A stretch of DNA of 64,000 nucleotides from positions 3,868 to 67,867 of the forward strand of contig JAFGSN010000052.1 of the NCBI GenBank assembly GCA_016934575.1, given 5' to 3'. The notes under the pieces are model-generated. The model was not told the DNA's origin. It made no database searches and saw only the letters and a list, made by a program, of their open reading frames with translations. Below, in pieces: positions 8,838 through 64,000 of the stretch. Positions within the stretch are counted from its first letter, which is position 1. Each line of letters starts with the position of its first letter. The position numbers and the translations under genes were made by a program. This stretch comes from Vicinamibacteria bacterium. GTDB taxonomy: Bacteria > Acidobacteriota > Vicinamibacteria > Fen-336.

Positions 8838-8847
8838 GCGATCGATC

Positions 8848-36966: not shown

Positions 36967-37045
36967 TGCGCGAATCACGCGCCGGATGGGCCGCGGGTCG
37001 GCTCTCGGCCCCCTGGATCCCCTGGAGAGGTCGAATCGATACGCC

Positions 37046-48066: not shown

Positions 48067-48207
48067 GCCATGAAGACCCGAGTCGCACGCTAGCGTAGCG
48101 TGGATTCGCGACGAACGCACCCCGCCTGTCGTGCTCGATGTGCGCGCCTAGGCCGGATCATAGAGGATATTCGACCCCCGGTTGGCTCGCCCATAGATCG
48201 TATGGAG

Positions 48208-49044: not shown

Positions 49045-49329
49045 ATGACGACCCAATTTGAGTCGTCGATCCTGGCATGCGTTGAATCAACGGATCATCT
49101 CGGCGCCGCGACGCGATATAATCGCGCCGCTGTCGCGTGGAAAAAGCATCTCCTTGACGATTCGATCTCGGCGGTGGATATATCCGAGAACACGCATGGC
49201 GCACGGTCAACGGAGCCGAACGAAATCGAGGACATTTTTCGGCTGGTGCGCCGCGCCTCCGAGTATTTCCCGCTGAAGACGATGATTCGGCGGCGGATAA
49301 GCCGGCTGGAGGTCATCAGGCAGCAATGA
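49045..49329 (+). CDS. Small hypothetical protein
   Basis: 94-aa ORF (ATG 49045) between RidA-like gene and PD40 gene; overlaps next start; no recognisable domain. Confidence 0.3.
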   Translation: MTTQFESSILACVESTDHLGAATRYNRAAVAWKKHLLDDSISAVDISENTHGARSTEPNEIEDIFRLVRRASEYFPLKTMIRRRISRLEVIRQQ

Positions 49330-51407
49330 ACGTCATTCATCGTGACGAACAACACGGCTTGCGACGCGAGGCCCCGAGACTGCGGATTCGTCTGCTCGCG
49401 CTGGCGGTCTTTGTTACGACCGGCGATCCCGGGATCGCCTTGAACCGGCAGAGCGCTCCTGGAATCGCTGCGGCATTGTCCGCGAAACGTACGCCCTCGA
49501 TGTGCTTCGTCGTCACGCAATTGCCCATCGGCACGGCGGCCGAGAAGCAGGGGCCTCTTTCGGGCGGCATGTCGCCCGCCGACTGGGGCGCCGGCGCGCG
49601 GCTCGTTCTCGTCGAAGCGGGCAAGGTCTTCAAGGTGCTGACGTCCGATTTCGCGAGCGCCGCCGATCCCGACGTGTCCTTCGACGCCAAATCAATCGTC
49701 TTCGCCGGCCAGAAGCAAGCGGACGACCGTTGGGCCATCTACGAGATGAACGCCGACGGGAGCGGAGTGCGACAGGTCACGAGCGCGATCGATGATCTTC
49801 GCCAGCCCGTCTACCTACCAACAGTCCACACCATCATCGCCGACCCGACCAAGGGCACGGAGCCTCGACCTCAGATCGGCTACGTGCGTCTCTTCGACGC
49901 GTCACTCAACGAGGCCGGCGCCGGCCGCGCGCGGGCGATCTACTCCGTTCGAATCGACGGAGCATCGCCACGACGCCTGTCCTACAACTTGTCGAGCGAC
50001 ATGAACCCGACCGTTCTGAACGACGGCCGCATCGTCTATGCGAGCTGGCGGCGCGCGACGTTTTCACGCGGGGTCTCGGGTCGAATCGTGCTGCTCGGCA
50101 TCAACCCGGACGGCACGGACCCGGCGATCTTCGCGGGCGACGAAGGGCTGCGTCTCAAGCTCATGCCATGCGTGACGCGCGATCGCCTGGTGGCCTTCGT
50201 CGAAGCCGAAAGCGTGGGCTGGGACGGCGCCGGAAGCCTGGGATGCGTCAGCCTGCGCCGAAACCTGCACTCGCGCCGCCGGATCACCTTTGAGGGCGAC
50301 GGTCTCTTCCTTTCTCCGTCGGCCTTGTCTGACGGGCAGATCGTGGCGGCGCGACGCCCGCCAAACGGATCCGGCGATCACGGCATCGTCCGCGTTCATC
50401 CCGTTTCCGGCAAGGTGACGTCGCTCTTCGATGACGCCGCCTTCCATGACATTCAGGCGCGTGCGATTGCGCCGCGCCCGGCGCCCGACGGTCGATCGAG
50501 CGGCCTCAAGGACCCCGATGAAGAGGCGCATGCCGCCGAGTCCGGCGACGCGTCCCGGAAGGTTGCCATCCCGGACGTGACAATGTACGGCCTGAACGTC
50601 TATCTGAACGACTTGGGGCACGACTTGGCCGAAGGCGTCATCCGCCGCCTGCGCATCATTGAAGGCATGCCGTTGACCTCGACAAGCGGACCGGCAGCCC
50701 ATGGTCCCGAGCCGCTCGCTCCCCGAAGGCTCCTCGGCGAGGCGCCGATCGAGCCGGACGGCTCCTTCTACATCCAGATTCCGGCCGAGACGCCAGTGCA
50801 ATTCCAGATCCTCGATCAGGACGGCCTCGCGCTTCGCACGTCGGGTTGGATCTGGGGGCATTACAACGGCCGTCAGGGCTGCGTGGGCTGCCACGAAGAC
50901 CCGGAGCGAACGCCTCCAAGCCGCTTTGCCGACGCGCTCCGCAAGCCGGGCGTCAGGCTGATTCTTCCTCCCGAGCGCAGGCGTGCGGTGGATTACCGCC
51001 ACGACATCGCTCCCATCGTCAAGGCCCGCTGCGCCGGTTGCCACGGCGAGGACAAGATGGTGCGCCTGGACGGCGGCCTTTCCACAACAGGCGCGAGCGG
51101 CCGTTTCTCACGAGCATACGAGTCGCTGCTCGCCGAACTTGACCGTGCGCCCGGCGAGGTGGTCGGCCGGTACGTGCATCCCCATCAGGCGCGTACCAGC
51201 CCTTTGATCTGGCATATCCTGGGTCGTAACACCGCTCGGCCGTGGGATGGATCGGCCACGCGTGCGAAAGCCAAGCCGATGCCGATGAGCGCGGGCGCCG
51301 CCTTGAGCGAGGACGAACGCGGACTGTTCATCGAATGGATCGACATGGGAGCGCTATGGGACGCGTCGGCAGGGTCCACGTCCATGACGATCGGAGGAGC
51401 GCGATGA
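49326..51407 (+). CDS. Secreted PD40/TolB-like beta-propeller protein with C-terminal Planctomycete-type cytochrome c (PSCyt1-like) CxxCH domains
   Basis: Signal peptide region RLLALAVFVTTG; PD40-like repeats (DPDVSFDAKSIVFAG...IYEMNADGSGVRQVT); C-terminal CVGCHED and IAPIVKARCAGCHGEDKMVRLDGG matching PSCyt1 pattern. Confidence 0.65.
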   Translation: MNVIHRDEQHGLRREAPRLRIRLLALAVFVTTGDPGIALNRQSAPGIAAALSAKRTPSMCFVVTQLPIGTAAEKQGPLSGGMSPADWGAGARLVLVEAGKVFKVLTSDFASAADPDVSFDAKSIVFAGQKQADDRWAIYEMNADGSGVRQVTSAIDDLRQPVYLPTVHTIIADPTKGTEPRPQIGYVRLFDASLNEAGAGRARAIYSVRIDGASPRRLSYNLSSDMNPTVLNDGRIVYASWRRATFSRGVSGRIVLLGINPDGTDPAIFAGDEGLRLKLMPCVTRDRLVAFVEAESVGWDGAGSLGCVSLRRNLHSRRRITFEGDGLFLSPSALSDGQIVAARRPPNGSGDHGIVRVHPVSGKVTSLFDDAAFHDIQARAIAPRPAPDGRSSGLKDPDEEAHAAESGDASRKVAIPDVTMYGLNVYLNDLGHDLAEGVIRRLRIIEGMPLTSTSGPAAHGPEPLAPRRLLGEAPIEPDGSFYIQIPAETPVQFQILDQDGLALRTSGWIWGHYNGRQGCVGCHEDPERTPPSRFADALRKPGVRLILPPERRRAVDYRHDIAPIVKARCAGCHGEDKMVRLDGGLSTTGASGRFSRAYESLLAELDRAPGEVVGRYVHPHQARTSPLIWHILGRNTARPWDGSATRAKAKPMPMSAGAALSEDERGLFIEWIDMGALWDASAGSTSMTIGGAR

Positions 51408-53047
51408 AAAGCTGGACTGCCGCCGGAGCGATCATCCTTGTCGCGGCGACCGCGCCCGGCCAGGCGCAAGATCGGCCCTCCGGGCCGATCACTTTCACCG
51501 ACATCGCCGGACCAGCCGGCCTGGCCGCCTTCAAGCATAGCTACGGCGACCACGATCTCGACAACATCGTCGAGGCCACCGGCGTGGGGCCGTGCCTGTT
51601 CGACTATGACGGAGACGACGATCTGGACGTCTACTTCCCTAACGGTCGTTGGACGAAGGGTCTTTCCGATAATCGTGGCCGCAATCTGATCGGGAAACTC
51701 AAGAACGCCCTCTACCGCAACAACGGCGACGGCACGTTCACCGATGTCACGAATCGGGCCGGCGTGGCCGGCAAAAGCGCCGGTTACTCCGCGTCGGCGG
51801 CCGACTATGACGGAGACGGCGACCTCGATCTCTACCTATGCAATTACGGACCGAATGAGCTCTATCGCAACAACGGCGACGGCACGTTCACCGACGTCAC
51901 GGCCGAAGCGGGCATCGGCGATCCGCTCTTCAGCCTCTCGGGCGTCTGGCTCGATTACGACGGCGACGGCGATCTCGATCTCTTCGTCTGCAACTATCTC
52001 GAATACGATGAAGGCAAGTTCCGCTCTTTTTACGCGGCCACGGGTTTTCCCGGACCGCTGTCGTACAACGGCCAGCCCGACACGCTGTACCGCAACAACG
52101 GCGACGGCACGTTCACCGACGTGACCAAGGCGGCCGGCGTCTACTTCGAGCAAGGCCGCGGCATGAGCGCGACCGCCGCGGATCTGAATAATGACGGCCT
52201 AGTCGACATCTATGTCGCAAACGACGCTATGGAGAACAACTACTTCGAGAACAGCGGCAAGGGATCCTTTATCGATAATGGGCTGCTGACGGGACTGGCG
52301 TTCGGGCAGAACGGCCAGGGCGTCTCCTCGATGGGTCCCGCCGTCGGCGATATCGATCGCGACGGCCATCTGGACATCCTGATTCCCGATATGGACTACA
52401 TGAGCCTTCTCGTCTGGCGCGACGGCATATATGAGGATCATGTCGATCGCTCCAACATCGCCGTGATCAGCGGTCAGTACACCGGATGGGGCGGCGTGCT
52501 TTTCGACTTTGACAACGACGGCTATCTTGACGTATTCATCGCTAACGGCCACCCCCATCATGAATATCCAGAAAACGCCGTGCTGGCGCGGAACAACGGC
52601 AAGGGCGTCTTCGTCGACGTCGCGCGCCATGCGGGCGAGTACTTTGGAACGAAGAAATGGTACTCGCGCGGAACGGCGTATGCCGACATTGACGACGACG
52701 GCGATCTCGATCTGCTGGTAATGGACCTCAACGGCCACCCGCACTTGCTGCGCAACGACGGCGGCAACACGGCCAACCACTGGCTCAAGTTCGACGTGCG
52801 CCGCGCCGACGGCAAGCTGGCCGCGATTGGAGCCCGCGTCACGGTCGTCGTCGGGGGCTTGAAGTTGATTGACGACGTTTCGCCCGTCCGCGGCTATCTC
52901 GCGCAGAACGATCCGCGCCTTCACTTCGGGCTTGGCAAAGCGGTCAAAGCCGACTTGGTGGAGATCCGCTGGCCGGACGGCCGAACACGGCGGATGAAGG
53001 ACGTGCCGTCGAATCAAATCCTGAAGGTGACTCCCGATGCTCGCTAG
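51404..53047 (+). CDS. CRTAC1-family protein (FG-GAP/VCBS repeats + ASPIC/UnbV domain), secreted; paralog of 43373..45079
   Basis: ATGA overlap with upstream gene, GGAGGAG RBS; signal peptide MKSWTAAGAIILVAATAPGQA; DYDGDGDLD FG-GAP repeats; C-terminal UnbV_ASPIC-like. Confidence 0.7.
   Translation: MKSWTAAGAIILVAATAPGQAQDRPSGPITFTDIAGPAGLAAFKHSYGDHDLDNIVEATGVGPCLFDYDGDDDLDVYFPNGRWTKGLSDNRGRNLIGKLKNALYRNNGDGTFTDVTNRAGVAGKSAGYSASAADYDGDGDLDLYLCNYGPNELYRNNGDGTFTDVTAEAGIGDPLFSLSGVWLDYDGDGDLDLFVCNYLEYDEGKFRSFYAATGFPGPLSYNGQPDTLYRNNGDGTFTDVTKAAGVYFEQGRGMSATAADLNNDGLVDIYVANDAMENNYFENSGKGSFIDNGLLTGLAFGQNGQGVSSMGPAVGDIDRDGHLDILIPDMDYMSLLVWRDGIYEDHVDRSNIAVISGQYTGWGGVLFDFDNDGYLDVFIANGHPHHEYPENAVLARNNGKGVFVDVARHAGEYFGTKKWYSRGTAYADIDDDGDLDLLVMDLNGHPHLLRNDGGNTANHWLKFDVRRADGKLAAIGARVTVVVGGLKLIDDVSPVRGYLAQNDPRLHFGLGKAVKADLVEIRWPDGRTRRMKDVPSNQILKVTPDAR
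51710..52140 (+). repeat. Three near-identical ~41-nt intragenic direct repeats (LYRNNGDGTFTDVT-coding) within CRTAC1 paralog
   Basis: CTCTACCGCAACAACGGCGACGGCACGTTCACCGATGTCACG at 51710, 51860 and 52085 with 1-3 mismatches; corresponding repeats in paralog 43373..45079 are much more diverged. Confidence 0.7.
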
Positions 53048-53069
53048 AAACGAAAGGCCTCCGCGCGCG

Positions 53070-55973
53070 ATGCGTTACAAGAGAGCTCTCGCGTTGCTGC
53101 TCGTGCCGCTCGCATGGGTCTTCGTCCATGCGCCGGGGCGTCCGTCCGTTCGCGCCGCCGGCAAGGATCCGATCTATGTCGGATCCCACGCCTGTGCGAA
53201 GTGCCACGACGGCGCGGGCATGGGCCACCAGTATAGCAAATGGCTTCTCGGCCGACACGCACGCGCGTACGCCTCGCTGAGCCTTCCGGAGTCGCGCCAG
53301 ATCTCGGATCTTTCCGGAATTCCAGGCGATCCGCACGACTCCCCGATGTGCCTCGGCTGCCATGCCACCGGCTCGGATGCGGAGCCGTGGCAACGCGACG
53401 CCGCGTTTCATACGGCGGACGGCGTCCAGTGCGAGAAGTGCCACGGTCCCGGCAGCGAGTATATGGACATGGAGGTCATGCAAAACCGCGAGGCAGCCAT
53501 GATGGCCGGCCTCATGATGCCCGCCAAGAAGGACTGCATGCTCTGCCACTACGTCAAGGGGTCGCACGCGGCCGTGCACAAGCGGCCGCTGATCGACGTC
53601 GAGAAGGCATGGATGAAGATCGCGCATCCCACGCCCAAGAGCGCATCGCCGGGCGGCCCCGCCGGCGTGGGCAAGACGGTTTCCCTGAAAGGTCCCAAGT
53701 ACGCGGGCGTCGATGCCTGCGGCGCCTGCCACAACACAGCCATGATGAACCGCCAAGCCAATCGCTGGAAAATGACGGCGCATTCCCGGGCCTGGGCCGT
53801 GCTGGCGACGCCGAAGGCCTTCGAGATTGCGAAAGACAAGGGCCTGACCGGAGCGCCCCAGCAGACGGCGCAGTGTCTCAAGTGCCACGCGACCGGCCAT
53901 GGGCAAGACCCCGGCCGTTTCCTGGCGAGCGCACGAATCACCGAAGGCGTGACTTGCGAGGCGTGTCACGGACCCGGCAGCGAGTACATGCCCGAGGCCG
54001 TCATGCGCGACCGACTAGCCGCCAGGAAAGCCGGTTTGGTCGAACCGACGGCCGAGAGCTGCATGGGCTGCCACCAAAACGCCCACGGCAAGACGTTCGA
54101 CGCGGTGATGGCGATGAAAAAAATCGCCCATCCCATGAAGCCTCCCATGGCGACCATGGCAAAGACGGCCGAGTTCTCGATCCCGCCGAGCCGGAGCGGC
54201 TACAAGACGCCGCGCCACCTCGCCGTCCGTCCCGACGGCGCCGAAGTCTGGATCGCCTGCGAAGCCAGCGACAGCCTGATCATCGTCGACGTGAAGAAAC
54301 GGCTGAAGACGGCGGAAATCAAGGTCGGCGGGCAGCCTCACGACGTGGCGTTCGAGCCTGACGGGAAGCGCGCCTTCGTCTCCAATCGTCTCGATGACAG
54401 CGTCTCGGCCATAGACGTCGCGTGCCGCAAGGTTACGGCGACCATTGCGGTCGGCGACGAGCCACACGGGTTGGTCGTCAACAAGTCCGGCGCACTGCTC
54501 TTCGTGCTCAACTCCGCCAGTGAAGACATCTCGGTGATCGACCTTGAGGAGCTGCGCGAGCTACGCCGGCTCAAGGCCAGCCGTTTCCCATGGTCGCTCG
54601 CGCTCTCTCCCGACGGCCGGCGCATCGTGGCCACGAACACGCTCTCCAAGCTCGTGCCCTTCCGGCAACCGTCGGTTTCCGAGCTGACCGTGATCGACGC
54701 CGAGAAAGGCCGTATCGCGGACCGGCTGGAGGCGCCTGGCGCGAACTTGCTTCAGGGTGTGGACTGGCACCCTTCGGGCCGCTTCGCCCTCTTCACGCTG
54801 AACCGCACCAAGAACCTTGTTCCCATGACGCGCATCCACCAGGGTTGGACGATCACGAACGGTTTAGGCGTCGCCTGGGCTGACGGGCGCGTCGATCAGG
54901 TCCTGCTGGACGAGCCCAACTGGTACTTCGCCGACGCCTCCGACGTGGCCATCACGCCCGACGGCCGCCTAGCTTTCGCCACCAGCCAGGGCACGAATCG
55001 CGTCGCTGTTGTCGACGTCGAGCGACTCATCGATCTGTTGCAGAAAGCGTCGCTACGCGATCGCGCCGAGGTGATCCCGAACCACCTCGGCAAATCGGCC
55101 GAGTTCATCGTGAACTACGTGGAGACGCCGGATGCTCCGCGCGGCGTGGCCGTGACGCCGGATGGCACGACGGCGTTCGTGGCCAATCAGCTCGACGACT
55201 CGCTCACCGTGATCGACGTGGGAAGCAGGGCGTCCGTGGCGCGCATCGACCTGGGCGGGCCCAGGGAGGTCACGCACACGCGCTGGGGCGAGAAACTCTT
55301 CCACAGCGCCAACATCACTTTCCAGCGGCAGTTCGCTTGCGCCTCCTGCCACCCGGACGGCCACGTGGACGGTCTGACTTATGACATCGAGGCCGACGGC
55401 ATCGGCATCAATCCCGTGGACAATCGCACGCTGCGCGGGATCTACGACACCGATCCCTTCAAATGGGAAGGAACGAATCCATCGTTGGCGCGGCAATGCG
55501 GCGCGCGCTTGGCGGCGTACTTTACGCGCATTCAGCCGTTCACTCCCGAGGAGCTTTCGGCCGTGAACGACTACACGGTGACGATCCCTCGTCCTCCCAA
55601 CCGATACCGCGCCGCCGGCGCCGAGCTCACCGCGGCGCAAGCTCGGGGCAAGTTGGTGTTCGAGCGCACGCACGGCGCGGATGGCAAGGAGATCCCCGTT
55701 GACAATCGCTGCATCACCTGTCACTTCCCGCCCTACTATACGGATCGCAGCAAGCGGGACGTCGGCTCCAAGCACTGGCTGGACAAGCAGGGCATCTTCG
55801 ACGTGCCGCACCTCAACAACATCTACGACTCGGCGCCGTACTTGCACAACGGCATCGCCGACACGCTCGAGGAAATCTGGACGCGCTTCAATCCATACGA
55901 CACGCACGGCGTGACGAACGACATGACCAAGGACCAGTTGAACGACCTGATCGAATACCTGAAAACACTGTAG
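53070..55973 (+). CDS. Multidomain c-type cytochrome: 8 CxxCH (2x tetraheme c554-like) + YVTN beta-propeller + C-terminal di-heme cytochrome c peroxidase/MauG-like domain
   Basis: Signal peptide MRYKRALALLLVPLAWVFVHA; CxxCH motifs CAKCH, CLGCH, CEKCHGPGSEYM, CMLCH, CGACH, CLKCH, CEACHGPGSEYM, CMGCH, then CASCH and CITCH in CCP-like C-terminus (DVPHLNNIYDSAPYLHNG, LIEYLKTL); YVTN-like repeats between. Confidence 0.8.
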   Translation: MRYKRALALLLVPLAWVFVHAPGRPSVRAAGKDPIYVGSHACAKCHDGAGMGHQYSKWLLGRHARAYASLSLPESRQISDLSGIPGDPHDSPMCLGCHATGSDAEPWQRDAAFHTADGVQCEKCHGPGSEYMDMEVMQNREAAMMAGLMMPAKKDCMLCHYVKGSHAAVHKRPLIDVEKAWMKIAHPTPKSASPGGPAGVGKTVSLKGPKYAGVDACGACHNTAMMNRQANRWKMTAHSRAWAVLATPKAFEIAKDKGLTGAPQQTAQCLKCHATGHGQDPGRFLASARITEGVTCEACHGPGSEYMPEAVMRDRLAARKAGLVEPTAESCMGCHQNAHGKTFDAVMAMKKIAHPMKPPMATMAKTAEFSIPPSRSGYKTPRHLAVRPDGAEVWIACEASDSLIIVDVKKRLKTAEIKVGGQPHDVAFEPDGKRAFVSNRLDDSVSAIDVACRKVTATIAVGDEPHGLVVNKSGALLFVLNSASEDISVIDLEELRELRRLKASRFPWSLALSPDGRRIVATNTLSKLVPFRQPSVSELTVIDAEKGRIADRLEAPGANLLQGVDWHPSGRFALFTLNRTKNLVPMTRIHQGWTITNGLGVAWADGRVDQVLLDEPNWYFADASDVAITPDGRLAFATSQGTNRVAVVDVERLIDLLQKASLRDRAEVIPNHLGKSAEFIVNYVETPDAPRGVAVTPDGTTAFVANQLDDSLTVIDVGSRASVARIDLGGPREVTHTRWGEKLFHSANITFQRQFACASCHPDGHVDGLTYDIEADGIGINPVDNRTLRGIYDTDPFKWEGTNPSLARQCGARLAAYFTRIQPFTPEELSAVNDYTVTIPRPPNRYRAAGAELTAAQARGKLVFERTHGADGKEIPVDNRCITCHFPPYYTDRSKRDVGSKHWLDKQGIFDVPHLNNIYDSAPYLHNGIADTLEEIWTRFNPYDTHGVTNDMTKDQLNDLIEYLKTL

Positions 55974-56013
55974 GAGCGAAAGGCCGTTCGCCCCTACGAT
56001 TCGGGAGACACCG

Positions 56014-57219
56014 ATGATGCGCGTAATCATTAAAGTCTCGGCCGCGGTTCTGGCCGTCTTGACGCCGGTGGCCGCCTTCGCCGAGGCGACGCATGCGTCG
56101 CCTCGAGGATTGCCTTATGTCTATACAAAATGGAAGCATTTCACGATCGAGAACGGCTTGCCGAACAATCACGTCTTCGCCGTGCGCTCCAACGGGAACG
56201 ATCTTTGGGTCGGCACTGAAAACGGGCTGGCGCTGATCGACAAGCGCCAGAGCAAGGTCGTCAAGGTCTGGCAGGAAAAGGACGGCCTCCCCTTCCGATC
56301 GATCGCCGGCATCGATGTCGACAAAAACACCGGCGACGTCTGGCTCGGCCTTTTCGGCGGCGGATTGGCGCGCCTTTCGGGCGACCGTTTCGATCACTGG
56401 CACCAGTTGAACAGCGGTCTCGTCAACGACGTCGTCTACGACGTGGTCATGGAGCACGAGAACGTCTGGTGCGCCACGACCGCCGGGGCCTCGCGCTTCA
56501 ACCCAAAAACCGGCGAGTGGGCGATCTTCACTGAAAAAAACGCCCCCATGGAGGAAATCTGGAACTACGCCGTCGATTACGACCCGCAAGCGAACAAGGT
56601 CTTCCTGGCGATCTGGGGCTCGGGCGTGCTCGAATACGACGTGGCGACGGACCGCTGGCAGGAATACGTCGACCCGGACGGAGAAATGGAAATCGACCTT
56701 TACCGCGACGACGGCGTCAACCACGTCATTGTCACCGGCGTAACCAGCATCGACGGCGCCATGTGGGTTTCCTCCTACTTCGGCGGCACGCGCTATGACG
56801 GCCGGAGCTGGCTCGGACTGCCGGACATCGAAGGCGGACTGCCGAGCCTGTTCAACAATAACGTCAAGGGCCGGAGCGCTCACGAGGCCTGGTTTTGCTC
56901 GGACAAGGGCGCGGGCGCGATCGTGGATCTCGATCCCGAAACCTGGGTCCAGTACGTGCGCGACGGCCGCGGCGGACGCGCGATCGTGAAGCAACGCCTG
57001 AAGCCGGAGGACAAGACCCTGACGACGGTCGAGGTAGTCGAAACGGGCGTCAACGCACCCCACTCCTTCATCGTCAACGCCGACGTCGAGGGCAACGACG
57101 TCTTCCTGGGAACGTCGCACGGACTGGGCTGGGGCGTCGGCGAGGGCTATTATCCGCGCCTCAAGGAACGACCGCTCATCGGGGCTGCGCCCAAGGCGGA
57201 TGTCGCCACACAAAGGTAG
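56014..57219 (+). CDS. Secreted beta-propeller protein with two-component-regulator-propeller (Reg_prop)-like repeats
   Basis: Signal peptide MMRVIIKVSAAVLAVLTPVAAFA; repeats NGLPNNHVFAVRSNGNDLWVGTENGLALID typical Reg_prop. Confidence 0.6.
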   Translation: MMRVIIKVSAAVLAVLTPVAAFAEATHASPRGLPYVYTKWKHFTIENGLPNNHVFAVRSNGNDLWVGTENGLALIDKRQSKVVKVWQEKDGLPFRSIAGIDVDKNTGDVWLGLFGGGLARLSGDRFDHWHQLNSGLVNDVVYDVVMEHENVWCATTAGASRFNPKTGEWAIFTEKNAPMEEIWNYAVDYDPQANKVFLAIWGSGVLEYDVATDRWQEYVDPDGEMEIDLYRDDGVNHVIVTGVTSIDGAMWVSSYFGGTRYDGRSWLGLPDIEGGLPSLFNNNVKGRSAHEAWFCSDKGAGAIVDLDPETWVQYVRDGRGGRAIVKQRLKPEDKTLTTVEVVETGVNAPHSFIVNADVEGNDVFLGTSHGLGWGVGEGYYPRLKERPLIGAAPKADVATQR

Positions 57220-57272
57220 AGGGAAGGCATATGCCTCACCCGCGGAACCGTCAAATGGTTAGGAGAAACGTC

Positions 57273-58748
57273 ATGAAACGCCAATCGGTCATTGTAATCA
57301 TGCTGCTTTTCGCCGCCGGATTCGCTTTTCCCGGCGACGGACGGAAGGCAACGCCGCTCAAGGAGTGGATCGAATTCGATCATCCCAAGATTCTCGCGTT
57401 GCTCAATCACATCAACGGCTTGGACGCGTACACGGTTCCTCCGCTCGAGGTTCGCAAGGACGAAAACTACGCCGGCACGGCCGTTGACGTCGAGCCCTTC
57501 GGAGGCGTGCGACCCTACAACGAGTTCTTCCTCCAGCAGATGGAGTACACAGGGCCTGGACGAGCCGAACCCGAACCCGAACACCTCGACACGGTGAAGA
57601 TCGGTTTCATCGGTCCCATCATGTCCACGGTCTCGGTCGCCACCGGCGGCAAGAGCCACGAGGAGACGCTTGGCATTCCAATGCTGCAGGGCGCGCGTCT
57701 CGCTCTCGAACAGTGGAACGAGCGCGGCGGCTATCTCAAGCGCAAGATTCCCTTTGAGCTAGTCGTTAGCAACGACAACGGACTGTGGGGCGCATCCGGC
57801 AACGAGATCATCAAGCAGAACTACAAGGACAAGGTGTGGGCGATCCTCGGGACGATCGACGGCGCCAACAGCCACATCGCCATCCGCGTGGCGCTCAAGT
57901 GCGAGGTCGTGATGATGAACACCGGCGACACGGATCCGACCTTCATCGAAACCAACATCCCCTGGGTTTTTCGTAACATCGGCGATGACCGGCAGCAGAG
58001 CTATCTCCTGATCGACTACGCATACCGCAAGATGGGTTACAAAATGCTCGGCATCATCCGCGCCAGCAACCGCTATGGCCGTTTCGGCGTGCGCGAGGTC
58101 CGCGACAGCGCGCGACGGTTGGGCAAGCCCGTGCCGCTGGAGATGGCCTACCAGGTGGGTCAGGAGGACTTCGCGCTCGAGATCGAGCGTTTGCGGAAGT
58201 CCGGCGTCGACGCCATCGTGCACTGGGGCGACGCGGTCGAGGGCGCCAAGATCCTCAACCAGATGCGCGCCATGGGCATGAAGCATCCCTACCTGGCCTG
58301 CGATCGCTGCGTTCAGGCTGATTTTGCGAAGATCGCCGGCGCCAACGCCGAGGGCGTCGTCTGTGCTTACCCCTGGAATCCCGAGAGCCAGACGAAGTTG
58401 TTCGTGAAGTTCCGCGACGCCTACCGCGCCCGTTTCGGCCAGGAACCCGAGACCTACGCCGCCCACGCTTACGACGGCATGAACATGATCATTTGGTCGA
58501 TCCAGGCGGCAGGCCTCAATCGCGCCAAGATGCGTGACGTGCTGGCCTACATGCCCGAGCCCTGGCCGGGAGTTACCGGCGATATTCAGCTCTCGGCCTG
58601 TCTTGACGACGTGGGCGACGTCTTCCTGGCGAAATACGAGAACGGCGACTGGAACTACTATTCGCGCACGGATCTCGACATTCCCAAGGGTTACATCCCG
58701 CCTCGCGATCGCGTGAGTCGTCCGGACATCGAGATCGCGCGGAAGTAA
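57273..58748 (+). CDS. Periplasmic binding protein type I (LivK/Peripla_BP_6-like), orphan
   Basis: AGGAG RBS then ATG 57273; signal peptide MKRQSVIVIMLLFAAGFAFPG; PBP-I fold features; no ABC permease/ATPase genes nearby; track ORF from 56895 is an extension. Confidence 0.7.
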   Translation: MKRQSVIVIMLLFAAGFAFPGDGRKATPLKEWIEFDHPKILALLNHINGLDAYTVPPLEVRKDENYAGTAVDVEPFGGVRPYNEFFLQQMEYTGPGRAEPEPEHLDTVKIGFIGPIMSTVSVATGGKSHEETLGIPMLQGARLALEQWNERGGYLKRKIPFELVVSNDNGLWGASGNEIIKQNYKDKVWAILGTIDGANSHIAIRVALKCEVVMMNTGDTDPTFIETNIPWVFRNIGDDRQQSYLLIDYAYRKMGYKMLGIIRASNRYGRFGVREVRDSARRLGKPVPLEMAYQVGQEDFALEIERLRKSGVDAIVHWGDAVEGAKILNQMRAMGMKHPYLACDRCVQADFAKIAGANAEGVVCAYPWNPESQTKLFVKFRDAYRARFGQEPETYAAHAYDGMNMIIWSIQAAGLNRAKMRDVLAYMPEPWPGVTGDIQLSACLDDVGDVFLAKYENGDWNYYSRTDLDIPKGYIPPRDRVSRPDIEIARK

Positions 58749-58756
58749 GGGGCGGC

Positions 58757-59986
58757 GTGTCTGCCCCCGCGCCGGCTCCAGGGCCGCGTGGCCGCCTTCT
58801 GGTTGCTCCGTCCACGCCGGGCCTGCTGCTTCTCCTGGCGACAGCGACCATGGCCGTCGCGCAGGAAAGCCGCCCCGCGCCGTTCTTCGATGCGCGTACA
58901 TATCAGACGGAATACGTAGGGCCCGGACGGGACGCGCCCCAACCGACGGACCTGAACGAAGTGCGGATCGCTTACTTCGGACCCGCCGATGAGGGCCATC
59001 CCGACTGGGGCGAGGCATGGCGCGGCGCGAGTCTCGCGATAGAGAAGGCCAACGCCAACGGCGGCCATCAGGGCAAACCGTTCCGTCTGCTCTCGGCTTG
59101 GTCGGACAATCCTTGGGGTTCAGGTGTCGCCGACCTCGCCAGGCTGGCGTTCAAGGAAGGCGTCTGGGCGATCGTGGGCGGCGTTGACGGCGCCACGACG
59201 CACCTCGCCGAGCAGATCGCCGTCAAGGCCAGGCTACCGCTCGTGAGCCCGGGATGCACGGACCCGAGCGTCAACTTCACCAACGTGGCATGGATGTTCA
59301 CTCTTCTTCCCACTGACGACCGGATCGCGCCCTTGCTCGCGAAATCCATCGTCGAGAGAAACGCGGATAAGTCGTGGGCCGTCGTCACAACGAACAACCG
59401 CGACGTTCGCGCGGCATGGAGCGCTCTCCGCCTCGGGCTTGCGGCGCGTCGCGCGCGGTCGCCGTCGCTCCACTTGACGTTGACGACTTCGACGCCAGAG
59501 TGCGCACGCGCCGCCCGCGAAGTCGCGCGACACAAACCGCGCCTCGTGCTGGTTCTCGCGACCGCCCGCGACGGCGCTCGCATCATCAAAGCGCTTCGAT
59601 CTGCGGGTTGCGACGGAAACGTCATGGGCGGCGCATCGTTCGGACATCGGCCGTTCTCGCTAGAAGCAGGCCCGACGGCCGATGGAGTCGCTTTCCCCTT
59701 GCTCTTCGACCCGGAAAACCCGGATGCGGACGCCTTCATTCGAGCCTACAAGGCCCGTTGGGGCTCGCCGCCGGACTTTCTGGCGGCCAACGCATACGAC
59801 GCGACGGATCTGATCGTTGGCGCCGTGGACCGGGCCGGCCTGAATCGCGTCCTGATACGCGACGCTCTCGCAACGCTCGCGCCCTGGGACGGAGTCGCGG
59901 GCCGAATCGCCTGGGATTCCACCGGACGGAACATGCGTCCAGTCACGATGGGCGTCTGGCATGACGGCCATGTACGCCGGCGATAG
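58757..59986 (+). CDS. Second periplasmic binding protein type I (LivK-like), orphan paralog
   Basis: GTG start 58757; hydrophobic signal region LLLLLATATMAVAQES; IAYFGP, GVWAIVGGVDG PBP-I-like motifs. Confidence 0.6.
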   Translation: MSAPAPAPGPRGRLLVAPSTPGLLLLLATATMAVAQESRPAPFFDARTYQTEYVGPGRDAPQPTDLNEVRIAYFGPADEGHPDWGEAWRGASLAIEKANANGGHQGKPFRLLSAWSDNPWGSGVADLARLAFKEGVWAIVGGVDGATTHLAEQIAVKARLPLVSPGCTDPSVNFTNVAWMFTLLPTDDRIAPLLAKSIVERNADKSWAVVTTNNRDVRAAWSALRLGLAARRARSPSLHLTLTTSTPECARAAREVARHKPRLVLVLATARDGARIIKALRSAGCDGNVMGGASFGHRPFSLEAGPTADGVAFPLLFDPENPDADAFIRAYKARWGSPPDFLAANAYDATDLIVGAVDRAGLNRVLIRDALATLAPWDGVAGRIAWDSTGRNMRPVTMGVWHDGHVRRR

Positions 59987-60111: not shown

Positions 60112-60140
60112 TTGACAATTAAGAGCATATGCTCATAATA
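60112..60140 (+). promoter_or_regulatory. Sigma-70 promoter TTGACA-N17-CATAAT with embedded 12-bp perfect palindrome operator
   Basis: TTGACA 60112-60117, CATAAT 60135-60140, spacer contains GAGCATATGCTC (60123-60134); in AT-rich stretch directly upstream of DUF134 gene (RBS GAGGTG, ATG 60155). Confidence 0.5.
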
Positions 60141-60154
60141 GACCGAGGTGTGCA

Positions 60155-60475
60155 ATGCCTCGACTTCCGGACTGCCGGCGTATTTCAGCGGACCCCGTGG
60201 TATCGATCTTCAAGCCCGCCGGCCTTCCGGTGAGAGGGCTCAACCAGATCGAAATGACGCTGGACGAGTTCGAGGCGATCCGACTCGCCGATCTGGAGGG
60301 CTTGTATCAGGAACAGGCCGCGGAAAAGATGCGGATCTCGCGTCCGACGTTTGGTCGCATCATCGAATCCGCGCATCGCAAGGTGGCGAAGGCGCTGGTG
60401 CAAGGACGGGCGCTCGTCATCCGCGGAGGCTTCGCCCACATGGCCGGAGAGCGCTGTCCGCGTTGTCGCACGTGA
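60155..60475 (+). CDS. DUF134 (UPF0251) family predicted DNA-binding protein
   Basis: 106 aa; LDEFEAIRLADLEGLYQEQAAEKMRISRPTFGRIIESAHRKVAKALVQGRAL matches DUF134 sigma-70 region-4-like HTH pattern. Confidence 0.75.
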   Translation: MPRLPDCRRISADPVVSIFKPAGLPVRGLNQIEMTLDEFEAIRLADLEGLYQEQAAEKMRISRPTFGRIIESAHRKVAKALVQGRALVIRGGFAHMAGERCPRCRT

Positions 60476-60523
60476 ACGCGCCCCGCTGGAAACGTCAATG
60501 CGGTCTTTGGATGCAAACGGAGG

Positions 60524-60892
60524 ATGAAAATGAAAATCGCCTTCACGGCGTCGGGTGAAACGCTGGACGCGCCGCTCGACGACCGTTTCGGCCGCGCCCC
60601 GAAATTCCTGATCGTCGATCCGGAAAGCGGCGCCCTTGAAGTCATCGACAATCTGCAAAACATGAACGCGCCCCAAGGCGCCGGCGTTCAGTCCGCGGAA
60701 ACGGTGGCGCGCTCCGGCGCGAGTTGCATCGTGACGGGCCATTGCGGGCCGAAGGCCTTTCGAGCGCTCTCCGCGGCCGGCATCAAGATCTACAACACGG
60801 ACGCGACCACCGTCGCCGAGGCGCTCGATCGATTCCGCTCGGGCACGCTCGTTCCGGCCGTATCCGCGGACGTTGAAAGCCACTGGATGTGA
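60524..60892 (+). CDS. NifX/NafY/NifB-C-terminal-like dinitrogenase FeMo-cofactor-binding domain protein
   Basis: 122 aa; MKIAFTASGETLDAPLDDRFGRAPKFLIVD...GAG...IVTGHCGPKAF...GIKIY matches Nitro_FeMo-Co domain. Confidence 0.8.
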   Translation: MKMKIAFTASGETLDAPLDDRFGRAPKFLIVDPESGALEVIDNLQNMNAPQGAGVQSAETVARSGASCIVTGHCGPKAFRALSAAGIKIYNTDATTVAEALDRFRSGTLVPAVSADVESHWM

Positions 60893-61383
60893 GCGCGACC
60901 GTCATCGCCTATCGACCGATCGGCGTAATCCGTAGCGAACATTTCGTCGTGGACAAGACGCCCATCCAGCCGATCTATGCGCGCGGATGCAAAGGGCAGG
61001 CGGAGGTGTTCCCGGAACACTCGGAGGGATTGAAAGACCTGGACGGCTTCTCTCACCTCTACCTCATTTATCACTTCCACCAAGCCGGGCCGTCGCGACT
61101 GGTCGTCGAGCCGTTTCTCCAGGACGTTGCGCGCGGAGTGTTCGCGACACGCGCTCCTTGTCGTCCCAATCCCATCGGCTTGAGCGTCGTGGAGCTGATC
61201 GGCCGTGACGGCAACGTTCTCCAGCTTGATGGCCTCGATGTTCTGGACGGCACGCCGCTGCTCGACATCAAGCCGTACACGGCCAAGTTCGACCGTATCG
61301 ACGGCACGCGCAACGGCTGGCAGGACTTTTTGGACGATGGAACTGCCGGAAGGCGAGGAAAACGCGGGTACAAGGAACCATGA
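60889..61383 (+). CDS. TsaA/YaeB (TrmO)-like SAM-dependent methyltransferase-fold protein
   Basis: GTGA overlap with upstream stop; PIGVIRSEH, LDGFSHLYLIYHFH, GVFATRAPCRPNPIGLS, DGTPLLDIKPY motifs typical of TsaA family. Confidence 0.8.
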   Translation: MSATVIAYRPIGVIRSEHFVVDKTPIQPIYARGCKGQAEVFPEHSEGLKDLDGFSHLYLIYHFHQAGPSRLVVEPFLQDVARGVFATRAPCRPNPIGLSVVELIGRDGNVLQLDGLDVLDGTPLLDIKPYTAKFDRIDGTRNGWQDFLDDGTAGRRGKRGYKEP

Positions 61384-62258
61384 AGACGTATCTCGACTGC
61401 ATTCCCTGCTTCGTGCGCCAAGCGCTGGAGGCGGTTCGTCCTCTCACAACCGACGTCGCCGTCCACGAGCGAATCGTCCGGGAAGTTCTCCGCTCCGCCG
61501 CGGAAATGGATTTCGCGCAGTCGCCTCCGTCAATGGGACAGTTTATTCATCGACGATTGCGCGAGATTACCGGCGTCGCGGACCCGTATCGCGACAAGAA
61601 GATCAGCTTCAATCGCATGGCTCTGGAAATGCTCGCCGAGAACAAGGCCCGTGTCGAAGCCGCGTCGGATCCCCTGGGAACCGCCGTTCGCCTAGCCGTC
61701 GCCGGGAACGTCATCGATCTGGGCGTCAAGGGCGGCCTGACGGAAAGCGATGCTCGCGAGGCGATTGAAAGAGCGCTTTCGGAGCCCCTCCACGGCGACG
61801 TGAACGAGCTGCGCCGCGCCCTATCCTCGGCCCGGCGCATTCTCTACCTGACCGACAATGCCGGCGAGATCGTTTTCGACCGTTTGCTCATCGAACAGCT
61901 TCCCCTGGATCGCGTGACCGTCGCCGTCCGCGGGCGTCCGATCATCAATGATGCGACTCTGGAAGACGCCGTCGCCGCCGGGCTCGATTCGCTAGTTGAA
62001 GTCATCGACAACGGATCGGACGCTCCGGGCACGATCCTGAGCGATTGCAGCGAAGGCTTCAGGGAACGATTCCGGACGTCCGATCTGATCATCGCCAAGG
62101 GCCAGGGCAATTTCGAAACGCTCTACGACGACGGGAACGACGTCATGTTCTTGTTCAAGGCGAAATGCCCCGTGATCGCCGCTCACATCGATCTGCCCCT
62201 GGGATCGCACGTGATGACAAGGCCGCCGAAAGCGGCGCGGGACGCGCGATGCCTCTGA
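61380..62258 (+). CDS. DUF89 (ARMT1-like) family protein
   Basis: ATGA overlap; MKTYLDCIPCFVRQALEA N-terminus and overall pattern of DUF89 metal-dependent phosphatase/damage-control family. Confidence 0.7.
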   Translation: MKTYLDCIPCFVRQALEAVRPLTTDVAVHERIVREVLRSAAEMDFAQSPPSMGQFIHRRLREITGVADPYRDKKISFNRMALEMLAENKARVEAASDPLGTAVRLAVAGNVIDLGVKGGLTESDAREAIERALSEPLHGDVNELRRALSSARRILYLTDNAGEIVFDRLLIEQLPLDRVTVAVRGRPIINDATLEDAVAAGLDSLVEVIDNGSDAPGTILSDCSEGFRERFRTSDLIIAKGQGNFETLYDDGNDVMFLFKAKCPVIAAHIDLPLGSHVMTRPPKAARDARCL

Positions 62259-63136
62259 ATACCCCGCCCGATCTGCGAGTCGTCGTGGCTTCCGGCAAGG
62301 GCGGAACCGGAAAGACGACGGTCGCGCTGAATCTTGCAAGCGTCGTGGCCGCGCCGGTGCAGCTTCTGGACTGCGACGTGGAGGAGCCGAACGTCCACCT
62401 GTTCCTCGAAGGCTCGACACGAAGCCGGGAGATCGTGTCGATTCCAGTTCCCGAGGCGGACGCGTCTCTCTGCGACGCCTGTGGCGAATGCAGCCGCTTC
62501 TGCCAGTATGGCGCGATCGCCGTTCTCAAGGATCGCCCGCTCGTGTTCGCCGAGCTATGCCACGGATGCGGCGGCTGTGTCAGGGTCTGTCCGAGGAGGG
62601 CGCTCCATGAGGTCGGACGACGGATCGGAACGGTTGAGGTGATCGCCGCGAATCACGTCACGCTCATTCAGGGTCGGCTCGACGTGGGCGTGGCCATGGC
62701 GCCGCCCCTCATCAAGGCCGTCAAGGCGCGCATGCGCGCCGGATCGATCGCGATCCTGGACGCTCCGCCGGGCACATCGTGTCCGGTGATCGCCGCGTTG
62801 CGCGATTCGGACGTCGCCGTGCTCGTTACCGAACCGACGCCTTTCGGCCTTCACGATCTGAAGCTGGCCGTCGAGACGGTTCGCGCGATCGGCGTTCCTC
62901 TGGGAGTGGTCGTCAATCGCGTCGGTATCGGCGACGATCGAGTGCATGCCTATTGCAGCGAACAGAGCCTCCCTGTTCTCGCGGAGATCCCGGACGACCG
63001 GCGCGTCGCCGAGGCCTATTCCAGAGGCGAGATCATTGTGAGCGCGTTGCCGGATTACCGGTCCGTTTTCGAGCGGCTGTGGGATTCCGTCGTGGATCTC
63101 GGCGCGCGGCAAGGAGATCAACATGCCGATGTATGA
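62249..63136 (+). CDS. MinD/ParA/Mrp-family P-loop ATPase with inserted 2x[4Fe-4S] ferredoxin domain
   Basis: Deviant Walker A GKGGTGKTT; two Cys clusters CDACGECSRFC and CHGCGGCVRVCP; start ATG 62249 overlapping DUF89 3' end. Confidence 0.8.
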   Translation: MPLNTPPDLRVVVASGKGGTGKTTVALNLASVVAAPVQLLDCDVEEPNVHLFLEGSTRSREIVSIPVPEADASLCDACGECSRFCQYGAIAVLKDRPLVFAELCHGCGGCVRVCPRRALHEVGRRIGTVEVIAANHVTLIQGRLDVGVAMAPPLIKAVKARMRAGSIAILDAPPGTSCPVIAALRDSDVAVLVTEPTPFGLHDLKLAVETVRAIGVPLGVVVNRVGIGDDRVHAYCSEQSLPVLAEIPDDRRVAEAYSRGEIIVSALPDYRSVFERLWDSVVDLGARQGDQHADV

Positions 63137-63383
63137 GTATGAGTGTCGATCGTGCGGTCATCGCTTCGAAAGCCGCCAATCGATCAAGGATGATCCGTTG
63201 ACGAAATGTCCGAGTTGCCAGGGCAACGTGCAACGATTGGTCACCGGCGGTTCCGGTTTTATCATCAAAGGTGGGACCGGACGAATTGGAGGGCGGGAAA
63301 ACGCGTGTTCCCTGGAGCAAACCGGACGGACGTGCTGCGGGCGAAGCACTCGTTGCGACCAGCCTGCCTGTGAAAGCCAATGA
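63123..63383 (+). CDS. FmdB-family zinc-ribbon protein
   Basis: MPMYEYECRSCGHRFE...CPSCQG classic FmdB CxxC...CxxC zinc ribbon; overlaps upstream gene end. Confidence 0.8.
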   Translation: MPMYEYECRSCGHRFESRQSIKDDPLTKCPSCQGNVQRLVTGGSGFIIKGGTGRIGGRENACSLEQTGRTCCGRSTRCDQPACESQ

Positions 63384-64000
63384 CGATCTCCGCGAGAAAA
63401 CGACACGTCTACGGTCCGGTTCCCTCGAAACGTCTGGGACGCTCCCTGGGACTGGATCTGGTCCCCTTCAAAACCTGCACTTATGACTGCATCTACTGTC
63501 ATCTGGGTCGGACCACGAACAAAACCATCGAGCGCAGGGAATACGCGCCGATCGATGCAGTCCTGTCGGAGCTCGAAGAAAGACTGCGACAAGGCCCCGC
63601 GCCGGATTATCTGAGCCTGGCGGGTTCGGGCGAACCGACGCTCAATTCGAAGATCGGCGATCTGATCCAGGCGATAAAGAGAACGTCCAGCATCCCCTTG
63701 GCGGTTCTCACGAACGGCTCCCTGCTATGGATGCGCGACGTTCAGGACGCTCTCATGGGCGCGGATCTCGTCATCCCGTCGCTCGACGCCGGTGACGCCA
63801 AGCTGTTCGAGCAGGTCAATCGTCCCCATGAAGGAATCTCCTTTGAAGCCATGGTCGACGGACTCATCCGCTTCAGGGAGCGGTTCGCGAAGTCGATCTG
63901 GCTCGAGGTTCTGTTGCTTTCCGGCTACACGGGGACGATTTCCGAAGCGGAGAAGATCGCCGCCGTCGCCAATAGAATACGACCGGACAGGATCCAACTC
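63380..64000 (+). CDS. Radical SAM enzyme (5' portion; runs off window end)
   Basis: ATGA overlap with FmdB stop; translation contains LGLDLVPFKTCTYDCIYCHLG (CxxxCxxC) and SLAGSGEPTLN glycine-rich SAM motif; no stop before position 64000. Confidence 0.75.
   Translation, partial: MTISARKRHVYGPVPSKRLGRSLGLDLVPFKTCTYDCIYCHLGRTTNKTIERREYAPIDAVLSELEERLRQGPAPDYLSLAGSGEPTLNSKIGDLIQAIKRTSSIPLAVLTNGSLLWMRDVQDALMGADLVIPSLDAGDAKLFEQVNRPHEGISFEAMVDGLIRFRERFAKSIWLEVLLLSGYTGTISEAEKIAAVANRIRPDRIQL

Follow-up and report, generated by a model that had tools for sequence, protein, structure and literature searches.

An orange-protein-type operon in a Vicinamibacteria genome and a palindrome conserved in the promoters of DUF134 genes

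The operon and its extent

A stretch of 64,000 nucleotides (nt) of contig JAFGSN010000052.1 from a Vicinamibacteria bacterium, here called the window, closes with a run of seven co-directional genes that we assign by sequence to the orange-protein-complex (ORP)-type clusters. The genes lie where a preliminary description of the window had placed them, and Pfam and NCBIfam profile searches bore out each of its domain calls: DUF134, NifX-like, TsaA-like, DUF89, MinD-ferredoxin, FmdB and radical S-adenosylmethionine (SAM, or AdoMet) (Table 1). The GC-rich diderm host proposed there is a Vicinamibacteria metagenome-assembled genome (MAG) of the Acidobacteriota. Five of the six junctions overlap, by 4 (GTGA), 4 (ATGA), 10, 14 and 4 (ATGA) nt; overlap had been claimed for all six, but the DUF134 gene and gene 2 stand 54 nt apart, or 48 nt if the first ATG of gene 2 (60524) is taken. 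Alignment with the related locus L003 favours the start at 60530 over this in-frame ATG. Short gene overlaps are common in GC-rich operons and unremarkable alone.

The operon does not end with the window. Through the full-length radical SAM protein (P0123, 318 amino acids (aa)) we reached a Logan contig, L009, which matches window positions 62680-64000 with 2 mismatches in 1321 bases and carries the operon past 64,000. There the radical SAM gene runs to its end and is followed by a second MinD-ferredoxin ATPase gene (4-nt overlap), a second NifX-type gene, NifU_N and a NifS-type cysteine desulfurase gene (4-nt overlap). L003, whose TrmO-like protein is 81% identical to that of the window, has the same eleven genes in identical order. 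The operon thus comprises about eleven genes, of which the window holds the 5' two-thirds, and the earlier count of seven is a window-edge artefact.

Table 1. Promoter elements and genes of the operon. Positions refer to the window unless contig L009 is named.
Feature	Position	Strand	Evidence or remark
Sigma-70-type promoter TTGACA-16-CATAAT	60112-60139	+	11/12 consensus matches
Palindrome GAGCATATGCTC, perfect, 12 bp	60123-60134		in promoter spacer; presumed DUF134 binding site (autoregulation)
Gene 1, DUF134/UPF0251 helix-turn-helix protein, 106 aa	60155-60475	+	PF02001, 87.5 bits (cutoff 27)
Gene 2, orange protein (ORP/Orp8-type) homologue, 120 aa, single NifX/Nitro_FeMo-Co domain	60530-60892	+	PF02579, 78.9 bits
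Gene 3, single-domain TrmO/YaeB-like AdoMet-binding beta-barrel protein, 164 aa	60889-61383	+	PF01980 TrmO_N, 136.6 bits; TIGR00104, 120.8 (cutoff 93.25)
Gene 4, DUF89/ARMT1-like metal-dependent phosphatase homologue, 292 aa	61380-62258	+	PF01937, 236 bits
Gene 5, MinD/CbiA-type P-loop ATPase with inserted 2x[4Fe-4S] ferredoxin domain, 295 aa	62249-63136	+	CbiA/ParA and Fer4 Pfam matches
Gene 6, FmdB-family zinc ribbon, 86 aa	63123-63383	+	TIGR02605, 75.2 bits (cutoff 31.3)
Gene 7, radical SAM enzyme with CTYDCIYC, first 207 of 318 residues	63380 to beyond 64000	+	PF04055
Second MinD-ferredoxin ATPase, paralogue of gene 5	L009 1654-2592		3' of the radical SAM gene
Second NifX-type protein	L009 2610-2948

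On L009 a DsrE-like sulfur-relay gene lies 124 nt after NifS (4733-5053). L003 lacks it at this position, so that it is probably not a fixed member of the operon. Between positions 59500 and 64000 we found no match to a known RNA or riboswitch in Rfam, even at E = 1. The operon has a GC fraction of 0.59-0.64, like its flanks, so that composition was uninformative about horizontal transfer. Long antisense open reading frames (ORFs) cross the operon, such as one of 232 aa on the minus strand at 60185-60883; they are without support and are a usual by-product of high GC.

Assignment to the ORP system

Three features place the operon among ORP-type clusters: the ORP homologue encoded by gene 2, ATPases like Orp3 and Orp4, and Orp9 motifs in the second NifX-type protein. 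On this homology it would belong to a system whose function is still unexplained. The ORP complex has been under study in Desulfovibrio since the 2000s. The best solved-structure match of gene 2 is the ORP of Desulfovibrio gigas (PDB 2WFB; E 2.5e-24), with about 45% identity over 107 residues and residues 2-108 aligned to 6-113 of the structure. In the second NifX-type protein we read CLHFGHCE, TPPAHEPG and, at the C-terminus, CDH; its L003 orthologue reaches 127 bits on the C-terminal domain of the MrpORP model (positions 265-365). CxHFGHCE, TPPxHxPG and CDH are motifs of the [3Fe-4S]-binding Di-Nase domain of Orp9 and MrpORP (Pardoux et al., PMC6345978).

Both ATPases combine a deviant Walker A motif, GKGGTGKT (at residue 16 of gene 5), with two CX2CX2CX3C ferredoxin motifs, in gene 5 CDACGECSRFC and CHGCGGCVRVC. 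They match the Orp3/Orp4 architecture as described in PMC6345978, a likeness of described domain make-up. In neither L003 nor L009 does the operon contain an Mrp/NBP35 P-loop gene; what comes after the second NifX-type gene is NifU and NifS. The Orp proteins of D. vulgaris assemble into a complex and bind clusters of the Fe-S and Mo-Cu-S types; their synthesis, controlled by the sigma-54 activator OrpR, is confined to low redox potential (PMC6345978; PMC8359166). The neighbourhood, which the preliminary description had called recurrent but uncharacterised, is recurrent and is the known ORP complex cluster, studied in Desulfovibrio with its function still unknown (PMC6345978, PMC8359166).

The Desulfovibrio work also suggests another role for the ATPases, namely that these MinD-like proteins are membrane-associated and act in cell division or positioning, with the metal clusters serving only as redox sensors. 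Morphological defects when orp expression is lost, the location of Orp9 at the cell pole and the MinD-type C-terminal amphipathic helices of Orp3 and Orp4 all speak for it (PMC6345978, PMC8359166). The ATPase genes here, however, share an operon with NifU, NifS, a radical SAM enzyme and cofactor carriers, which fits cluster metabolism, and no division genes lie nearby; we regard a division role for this operon as decidedly improbable.

Recurrence across genomes

ORP-type neighbourhoods with these genes are widespread. We compared the operon with about 170 related loci. In a scan with an alignment of the radical SAM family over one genome per species in GTDB, the family was encoded in at least 579 species-level genomes, among them Acidobacteriota, Planctomycetota, Verrucomicrobiota and NC10. 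We fetched 80 loci; sets of 80 such as this one hold the top-scoring relatives and are no random sample. Neighbours were labelled with hidden Markov models (HMMs) built from the operon and its relatives and applied to stop-to-stop ORFs, the Mrp model being seeded with a NifU-Mrp fusion. In the 45 loci flanked on each side by 5 kb or more, the genes within 10 kb of the radical SAM gene included MinD-ferredoxin ATPase and DUF5320 (33 loci each), NifX-type (32), sigma-54 activator (30), Mrp (24), zinc ribbon (16), TrmO-like (15), NifU (13), DUF89 (12) and DUF134 (6).

A second, independent set gave a matching picture. These were metagenome loci chosen through the TrmO-like protein, 20 of them well flanked: orange-protein-type NifX, Orp9-type NifX and a second MinD-ferredoxin ATPase were each present in 16, the radical SAM gene in 14, and the zinc ribbon and DUF89 in 8 each. 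TrmO-like relatives at 65-81% identity sit in ORP-type clusters in 16 of the 20.

Gene order is conserved as well as content. All seven window families stand in identical order in L022, L044 and L164, and without the zinc ribbon in L166; L154 and L156 hold the six structural families in window order, with a DUF134 gene undetected. All six loci belong to Smithella, Syntrophales or 'Deltaproteobacteria' MAGs, and a sigma-54 activator and DUF5320 precede the block. The TrmO-like, DUF89, ribbon and radical SAM genes, once taken for an extension peculiar to this genome, are found again, their order unchanged, inside ORP clusters from Syntrophales, Thermodesulfobacteriota, Planctomycetota and others. 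A full cluster typically reads (DUF134-NifX)-activator-NifX-DUF5320-ORP-TrmO-like-(DUF89)-ATPase a-(ribbon)-radical SAM-ATPase b-Mrp/NifU-NifX. The Vicinamibacteria version is a trimmed variant, without activator, DUF5320 and Mrp, that ends in NifU-NifS. The gene-neighbourhood search proposed in the preliminary description accordingly returned one functional unit with synteny kept across phyla, not chance neighbours.

A conserved palindrome in the promoters of DUF134 genes

The strong sigma-70 promoter with a palindromic operator noted in the preliminary description is present, and its support comes from cross-genome conservation. In the window alone the palindrome GAGCATATGCTC is not rarer than chance; its significance lies in its conservation across other genomes. 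The upstream regions of the window and L003 have diverged except for a block, ACTTGAC(A/T)ATTAAGAGCATATGCTCATAATA, that differs at one base. Across several phyla, the palindrome GARCATATGYTC lies in the promoter spacer of 14 of 17 DUF134 genes. Among the fetched loci with readable upstream sequence, 11 of 15 DUF134 genes carry it with at most 2 mismatches. It stands 32-44 nt 5' of the DUF134 start codon, and the frame TTGACA-N5/6-site-(T)ATAAT is kept in all but L146. The L022 site has 3 mismatches to the 12-mer with the core GCATATGC intact, and L036 has a core variant.

Two extra loci, chosen by DUF134 homology alone, show the same promoter-operator frame: TTGACAATTATGAGCATATGTTCAATAAG in L171 (Myxococcota) and TTGACAATTATGAACATATGTCCATAAT in L172. 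Both half-sites are altered in L172 (GAACAT...ATGTCC), a paired change that is consistent with, if not proof of, an inverted repeat bound by a dimer. A protein bound between the -35 and -10 elements would stand in the way of RNA polymerase, which makes autorepression the natural reading. DUF134 is thus the presumed repressor of the operon, autoregulating through the spacer palindrome. In the literature searched we found no functional study of DUF134.

DUF134 travels with a NifX-type partner. The gene after DUF134 is NifX-type in every locus with a readable next gene, DUF5320 intervening in two, and the pairing persists where rhodanese, DsbA-like or YeeE/YedE sulfur-handling genes take the place of the other cluster genes. 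Its retention there suggests that DUF134 receives its signal from the NifX partner, and the two may serve more generally as a regulatory cassette that responds to sulfur or to clusters. None of the best 120 DUF134 homologues is a DUF134-NifX domain fusion. In L171 (8001-10667) the pair, with the same operator, is followed by rhodanese, DoxX/MauE and DsbA-like thioredoxin genes, and in L172 (8001-12341) by ferredoxin, rhodanese and YeeE/YedE transporter genes.

A candidate sigma-54 promoter between genes 1 and 2 (TGGAAACGTCAATGC, 60487-60501) has the right GG/GC spacing and was rejected, the stretch not being conserved in L003; the relaxed pattern TGG-N9-TGC occurs 39 times in the window. No sigma-54 activator gene of any type was found in or beside the operon. 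The genome does use sigma-54: at 45057-48120 on the minus strand lie an NtrC-type sigma-54 activator with a receiver domain (45057-46535) and a histidine kinase. This activator, the nearest to the operon, lies 14 kb away and is of a response-regulator type, not the PAS/OrpR type.

The TrmO-like protein and DUF89

Gene 3 looks like a TrmO without the domain that tRNA methylation requires. NCBI names it TrmO, and it scores above the TrmO equivalog cutoff. With TrmO/YaeB, the class VIII AdoMet methyltransferase of tRNA m6t6A37, it shares the N-terminal barrel and all four AdoMet-contact residues: Q27, R88, D117 and K128 are kept and align with Q22, R82, D111 and K122 of AF0241. Unlike TrmO it ends 36 residues past the barrel and has no C-terminal DPRxxY domain, and its gene is flanked by an ORP-type NifX gene on one side and by DUF89 or MinD-ferredoxin genes on the other. 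In its domain make-up it resembles single-domain archaeal YaeB proteins such as AF0241 (PDB 2NV4). E. coli TrmO needs the DPRxxY domain to form m6t6A, and the substrate of the single-domain archaeal YaeB proteins is unknown (PMC4132733). Gene 3 would thus be a non-tRNA paralogue specific to ORP clusters, as its domain make-up and neighbourhood suggest.

The DUF89 protein is likewise a recurrent member of these clusters. It aligns over its full length with DUF89 damage-control phosphatases of the type of PDB 2FFJ and 2G8L, its PDB matches, and keeps their DNAGE (159) and KGxGNxE (KGQGNFE, 240) motifs. Despite its strong match to the Pfam ARMT1-like domain, it falls far under the NCBIfam equivalog cutoffs (184.6 against 440; 167.3 against 500). 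In 21 of the 53 metagenome loci with a readable neighbour, DUF89 is the downstream neighbour of the TrmO-like gene. This recurrence suggests that the ORP-cluster DUF89 acts on a dedicated substrate.

The radical SAM enzyme and its zinc ribbon

The radical SAM protein belongs to no family that its scores or fold would name. Against NCBIfam no family comes near cutoff. A PDB search with the single sequence gave no match, and a profile search gave weak matches only, with TYW1 structures at E ~3e-4 over 90 residues. The family alignment shows a single CX3CX2C motif and one other nearly invariant cysteine, C271 (RRPCT), and the C-terminus forms a MarR-like winged-helix domain. In the AlphaFold2 model (mean predicted local distance difference test score 87.7), pyruvate formate-lyase (PFL)-activating enzyme, NifB, TYW1 and viperin match about equally, at 13-20% identity. 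With such generic nearest folds, the modelled structure would offer no substrate assignment.

The names in the databases, taken at face value, would make gene 3 the tRNA m6t6A methyltransferase TrmO and gene 7 a TYW1-type wyosine enzyme, two housekeeping tRNA genes beside Fe-S genes. Both names have a basis, the one in the TrmO cutoff that gene 3 passes and the other in JGI's 'wyosine synthetase' for the radical SAM family. But this family scores 32.5 bits on the TYW1 model TIGR03972, whose cutoff is 317.95, and wyosine is an archaeal and eukaryotic modification. Both families are moreover embedded in ORP-type clusters across phyla. Together with the missing DPRxxY domain of gene 3 (PMC4132733), the TYW1 score led us to reject both identities, and we consider a pair of tRNA enzymes highly unlikely.

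The zinc ribbon encoded just before the radical SAM enzyme has an unusual tail. It shares the N-terminal CxxC...CxxC ribbon of the FmdB family (TIGR02605), whose low-complexity tail is replaced here by one with five cysteines, CSLEQTGRTCCGRSTRCDQPAC. The tail motif, C-x8-CCG-x4-C-x4-C, is kept in 20 of 22 zinc-ribbon homologues adjacent to the radical SAM gene, across phyla. In the TrmO-selected loci the radical SAM gene directly follows 12 of 16 tail-bearing ribbons, and in the window the two genes are translationally coupled by their ATGA overlap.

Such a pairing invites a reading as peptide modification, in which the ribbon would be the precursor of a peptide-derived cofactor or of a product like the ribosomally synthesised and post-translationally modified peptides. 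The radical SAM enzyme would modify its cysteine tail, the winged helix would recognise the peptide and the TrmO-like protein would methylate it, with ORP, the MinD-ferredoxin ATPases, NifU and NifS only supplying Fe-S. The conserved tail, the coupling of the genes and the winged-helix domain all agree with this, as does the best structural match of the radical SAM enzyme, the PFL-activating enzyme, which has a protein substrate. Yet a ribbon lies nearby in only about a third of the radical SAM loci (16 of 45) and is therefore not an obligate cis-encoded substrate. A SPASM or auxiliary-cluster domain, typical of known Cys-crosslinking maturases, is absent from the enzyme, and no protease or exporter genes accompany the cluster. 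In L010 the radical SAM protein is fused to a C-terminal Nitro_FeMo-Co domain (P0125, 440 aa, 8001-9323), which points to a cluster ligand, not a peptide. We think peptide modification unlikely, but it carries the most weight among the alternatives, ahead of NifB-like synthesis, then cell division or positioning, then the tRNA names. The L010 fusion gene is preceded by a zinc ribbon, and divergent genes around a sigma-54 activator there resemble the orp cluster.

The same fusion repeats the domain order of NifB and brings up the second of these alternatives, organometallic synthesis. Here the radical SAM enzyme and the TrmO-like protein would fuse or alter NifU-derived clusters with SAM-derived carbon or sulfur, NifX would carry the product and the MinD-ferredoxin pair would mature it, a nitrogenase-independent counterpart of the NifS/NifU-NifB-NifX-NifEN/NifH route. 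Every functional class of that route has a counterpart in the operon, and NifB structures (6y1x, 7bi7, 7jmb) are among the top fold matches, with template modelling scores of about 0.54-0.66 and 16% identity. That similarity is, however, at a level common to many radical SAM enzymes. The family alignment has no cluster ligands beyond the CX3CX2C triad and C271, and therefore none for K1- and K2-type clusters of NifB. TrmO-family proteins, for their part, are known only as N-methyltransferases (PMC4132733). On balance NifB-like chemistry seems improbable.

A model for the operon

We favour, with moderate confidence, a reading in which the operon, repressed by DUF134, encodes an ORP-type system that assembles metal-sulfur clusters and carries them. 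The genes present and their homologies, the structure of the operon, its synteny and the conservation of the operator argue for it, and the earlier guess of a metallocofactor or Fe-S-related pathway fits, with NifU and NifS in the same operon and gene 2 an orange-protein homologue. A DUF134 dimer on the palindrome would block the promoter and repress the operon, and may sense the cluster or redox state through the adjoining NifX-type protein. By homology, the cysteine desulfurase NifS and the scaffold NifU would supply Fe-S clusters. Cluster flow would then pass to the two MinD-type 2x[4Fe-4S] ATPases, which, going by the Desulfovibrio work on Orp3, Orp4 and Orp9, may form an ATP-driven pair for electron transfer and conformational work.

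The two NifX-type proteins would hold the product cluster, the ORP homologue non-covalently, going by its homology to D. gigas ORP, and the second through CxHFGHCE...CDH, given its homology to the Orp9 Di-Nase domain. The TrmO-like protein, DUF89, the Cys-tailed ribbon and the radical SAM enzyme could make up an optional SAM-dependent module that modifies the cluster or the Cys-rich tail holding it. This last step, suggested by conserved adjacency only, is the least certain.

Several points weigh against this reading. Even for the Desulfovibrio ORP complex no biochemical function is known, and those who described it suspect that it is tied to cell division (PMC6345978, PMC8359166). Three Desulfovibrio hallmarks, Mrp/NBP35, DUF5320 and the sigma-54 activator OrpR, are absent from the Vicinamibacteria operon. 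The family labels of the compared loci come from in-house HMMs on stop-to-stop ORFs, and the 'OrpR' model detects any sigma-54 activator. We infer binding of DUF134 to the palindrome from conservation alone, and any SAM-module chemistry from gene adjacency only. The radical SAM enzyme is without cysteines for an auxiliary cluster, and the folds closest to it are generic.

A bolder form of this reading, which we hold to be a long shot, makes the Cys-tailed ribbon a platform. On it the radical SAM enzyme and the TrmO-like protein would make either a peptide-derived cofactor or a metal-sulfur cluster that is SAM-derived and covalently modified; ORP and the second NifX-type protein would carry it, the ATPases would drive its transfer, and DUF134 would belong to a new family of cluster-sensing repressors that switch the system. 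If true, the ORP system would gain its long-missing chemistry, and there would be a second, nitrogenase-independent route to an organometallic or modified cluster.

The comparison widens the picture of ORP-type clusters. They reach well beyond sulfate reducers, often hold a SAM-dependent module mis-annotated as tRNA-modification enzymes, and are sometimes wired directly to NifU and NifS. The DUF134 family gains a conserved operator. Two systematic annotation errors, 'TrmO' and 'wyosine synthetase', can be flagged in thousands of database entries. In the literature searched we found no description of a conserved DUF134 operator, of a TrmO-like protein without the tRNA-methylation domain or of a pair of five-Cys-tail ribbon and radical SAM enzyme; nor did it link DUF134, DUF5320, COG1149/1433/1342, DUF89 or FmdB to ORP clusters.

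Surrounding genes

Several kinds of genes flank ORP-type clusters. Genes for ferrous-iron uptake, FeoA/FeoB, lie beside them in L003 (18750-20501), which adds a DtxR-type iron-dependent repressor fused to FeoA, and in L001 (1-756); their presence fits an iron-demanding function. A UbiE/Methyltransf_11-type class I methyltransferase gene accompanies the clusters in several loci that are unrelated to one another: L003 (8036-8848), L001 (856-1497 and 11250-11873), L010 (9834-11015) and L172 (9607-10479). The window has no such gene, and the gap there between the DUF134 gene and the gene of a binding protein is only 168 nt.

Directly upstream of the operon, at 49326-59986, lies a co-directional block syntenic with L003 1-7928. 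It encodes a protein with an HZS_alpha domain (a middle domain like that of hydrazine synthase alpha), an FG-GAP/ASPIC protein, a c554/MtrC-like multihaem cytochrome of 978 aa with a fused beta-propeller, a protein of 401 aa that matches nothing in Pfam, and a pair of Peripla_BP_6 binding proteins. Together these genes may form an extracellular redox module. Further upstream, on the plus strand at 36986-43228, is a very long ORF of 2080 aa.

Comparison with known systems

The closest known system is the ORP cluster of D. vulgaris Hildenborough and D. gigas (orp3-orp5, orpR, orp7-orp9). Shared with it are the orange-protein homologue, a pair of paralogous MinD-type ATPases with 2x[4Fe-4S] inserts like Orp3 and Orp4, and a NifX-type protein with the Orp9 Di-Nase motifs. 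An equation of DUF5320 with Orp5 would be an analogy from gene order, comparing L010 with the operon order in PMC8359166. Control differs, lying here with a DUF134 gene behind a sigma-70 promoter and operator, and the Vicinamibacteria operon carries its own NifU and NifS. It also holds the TrmO-like/DUF89/ribbon/radical SAM module, which is not mentioned in the ORP papers examined, and its host is an Acidobacteriota MAG, not a deltaproteobacterial sulfate reducer.

The cofactor line of nitrogenase (NifS, NifU, NifB, NifX/NafY, NifH/NifEN) offers a second comparison. Like it, the operon brings together a desulfurase, a U-type scaffold, a radical SAM enzyme, NifX-fold carriers and Fe-S-carrying SIMIBI ATPases. 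In contrast to it, the operon has no NifD, NifK, NifE or NifN homologues, its radical SAM enzyme is without the extra cluster ligands of NifB, and its ATPases are MinD-type with a ferredoxin insert, not NifH. The AdoMet beta-barrel protein and the DUF89 phosphatase have no Nif counterpart. The sigma-54-regulated clusters of Syntrophales and Thermodesulfobacteriota consist of the same gene families and hold the seven of the window in the same order.

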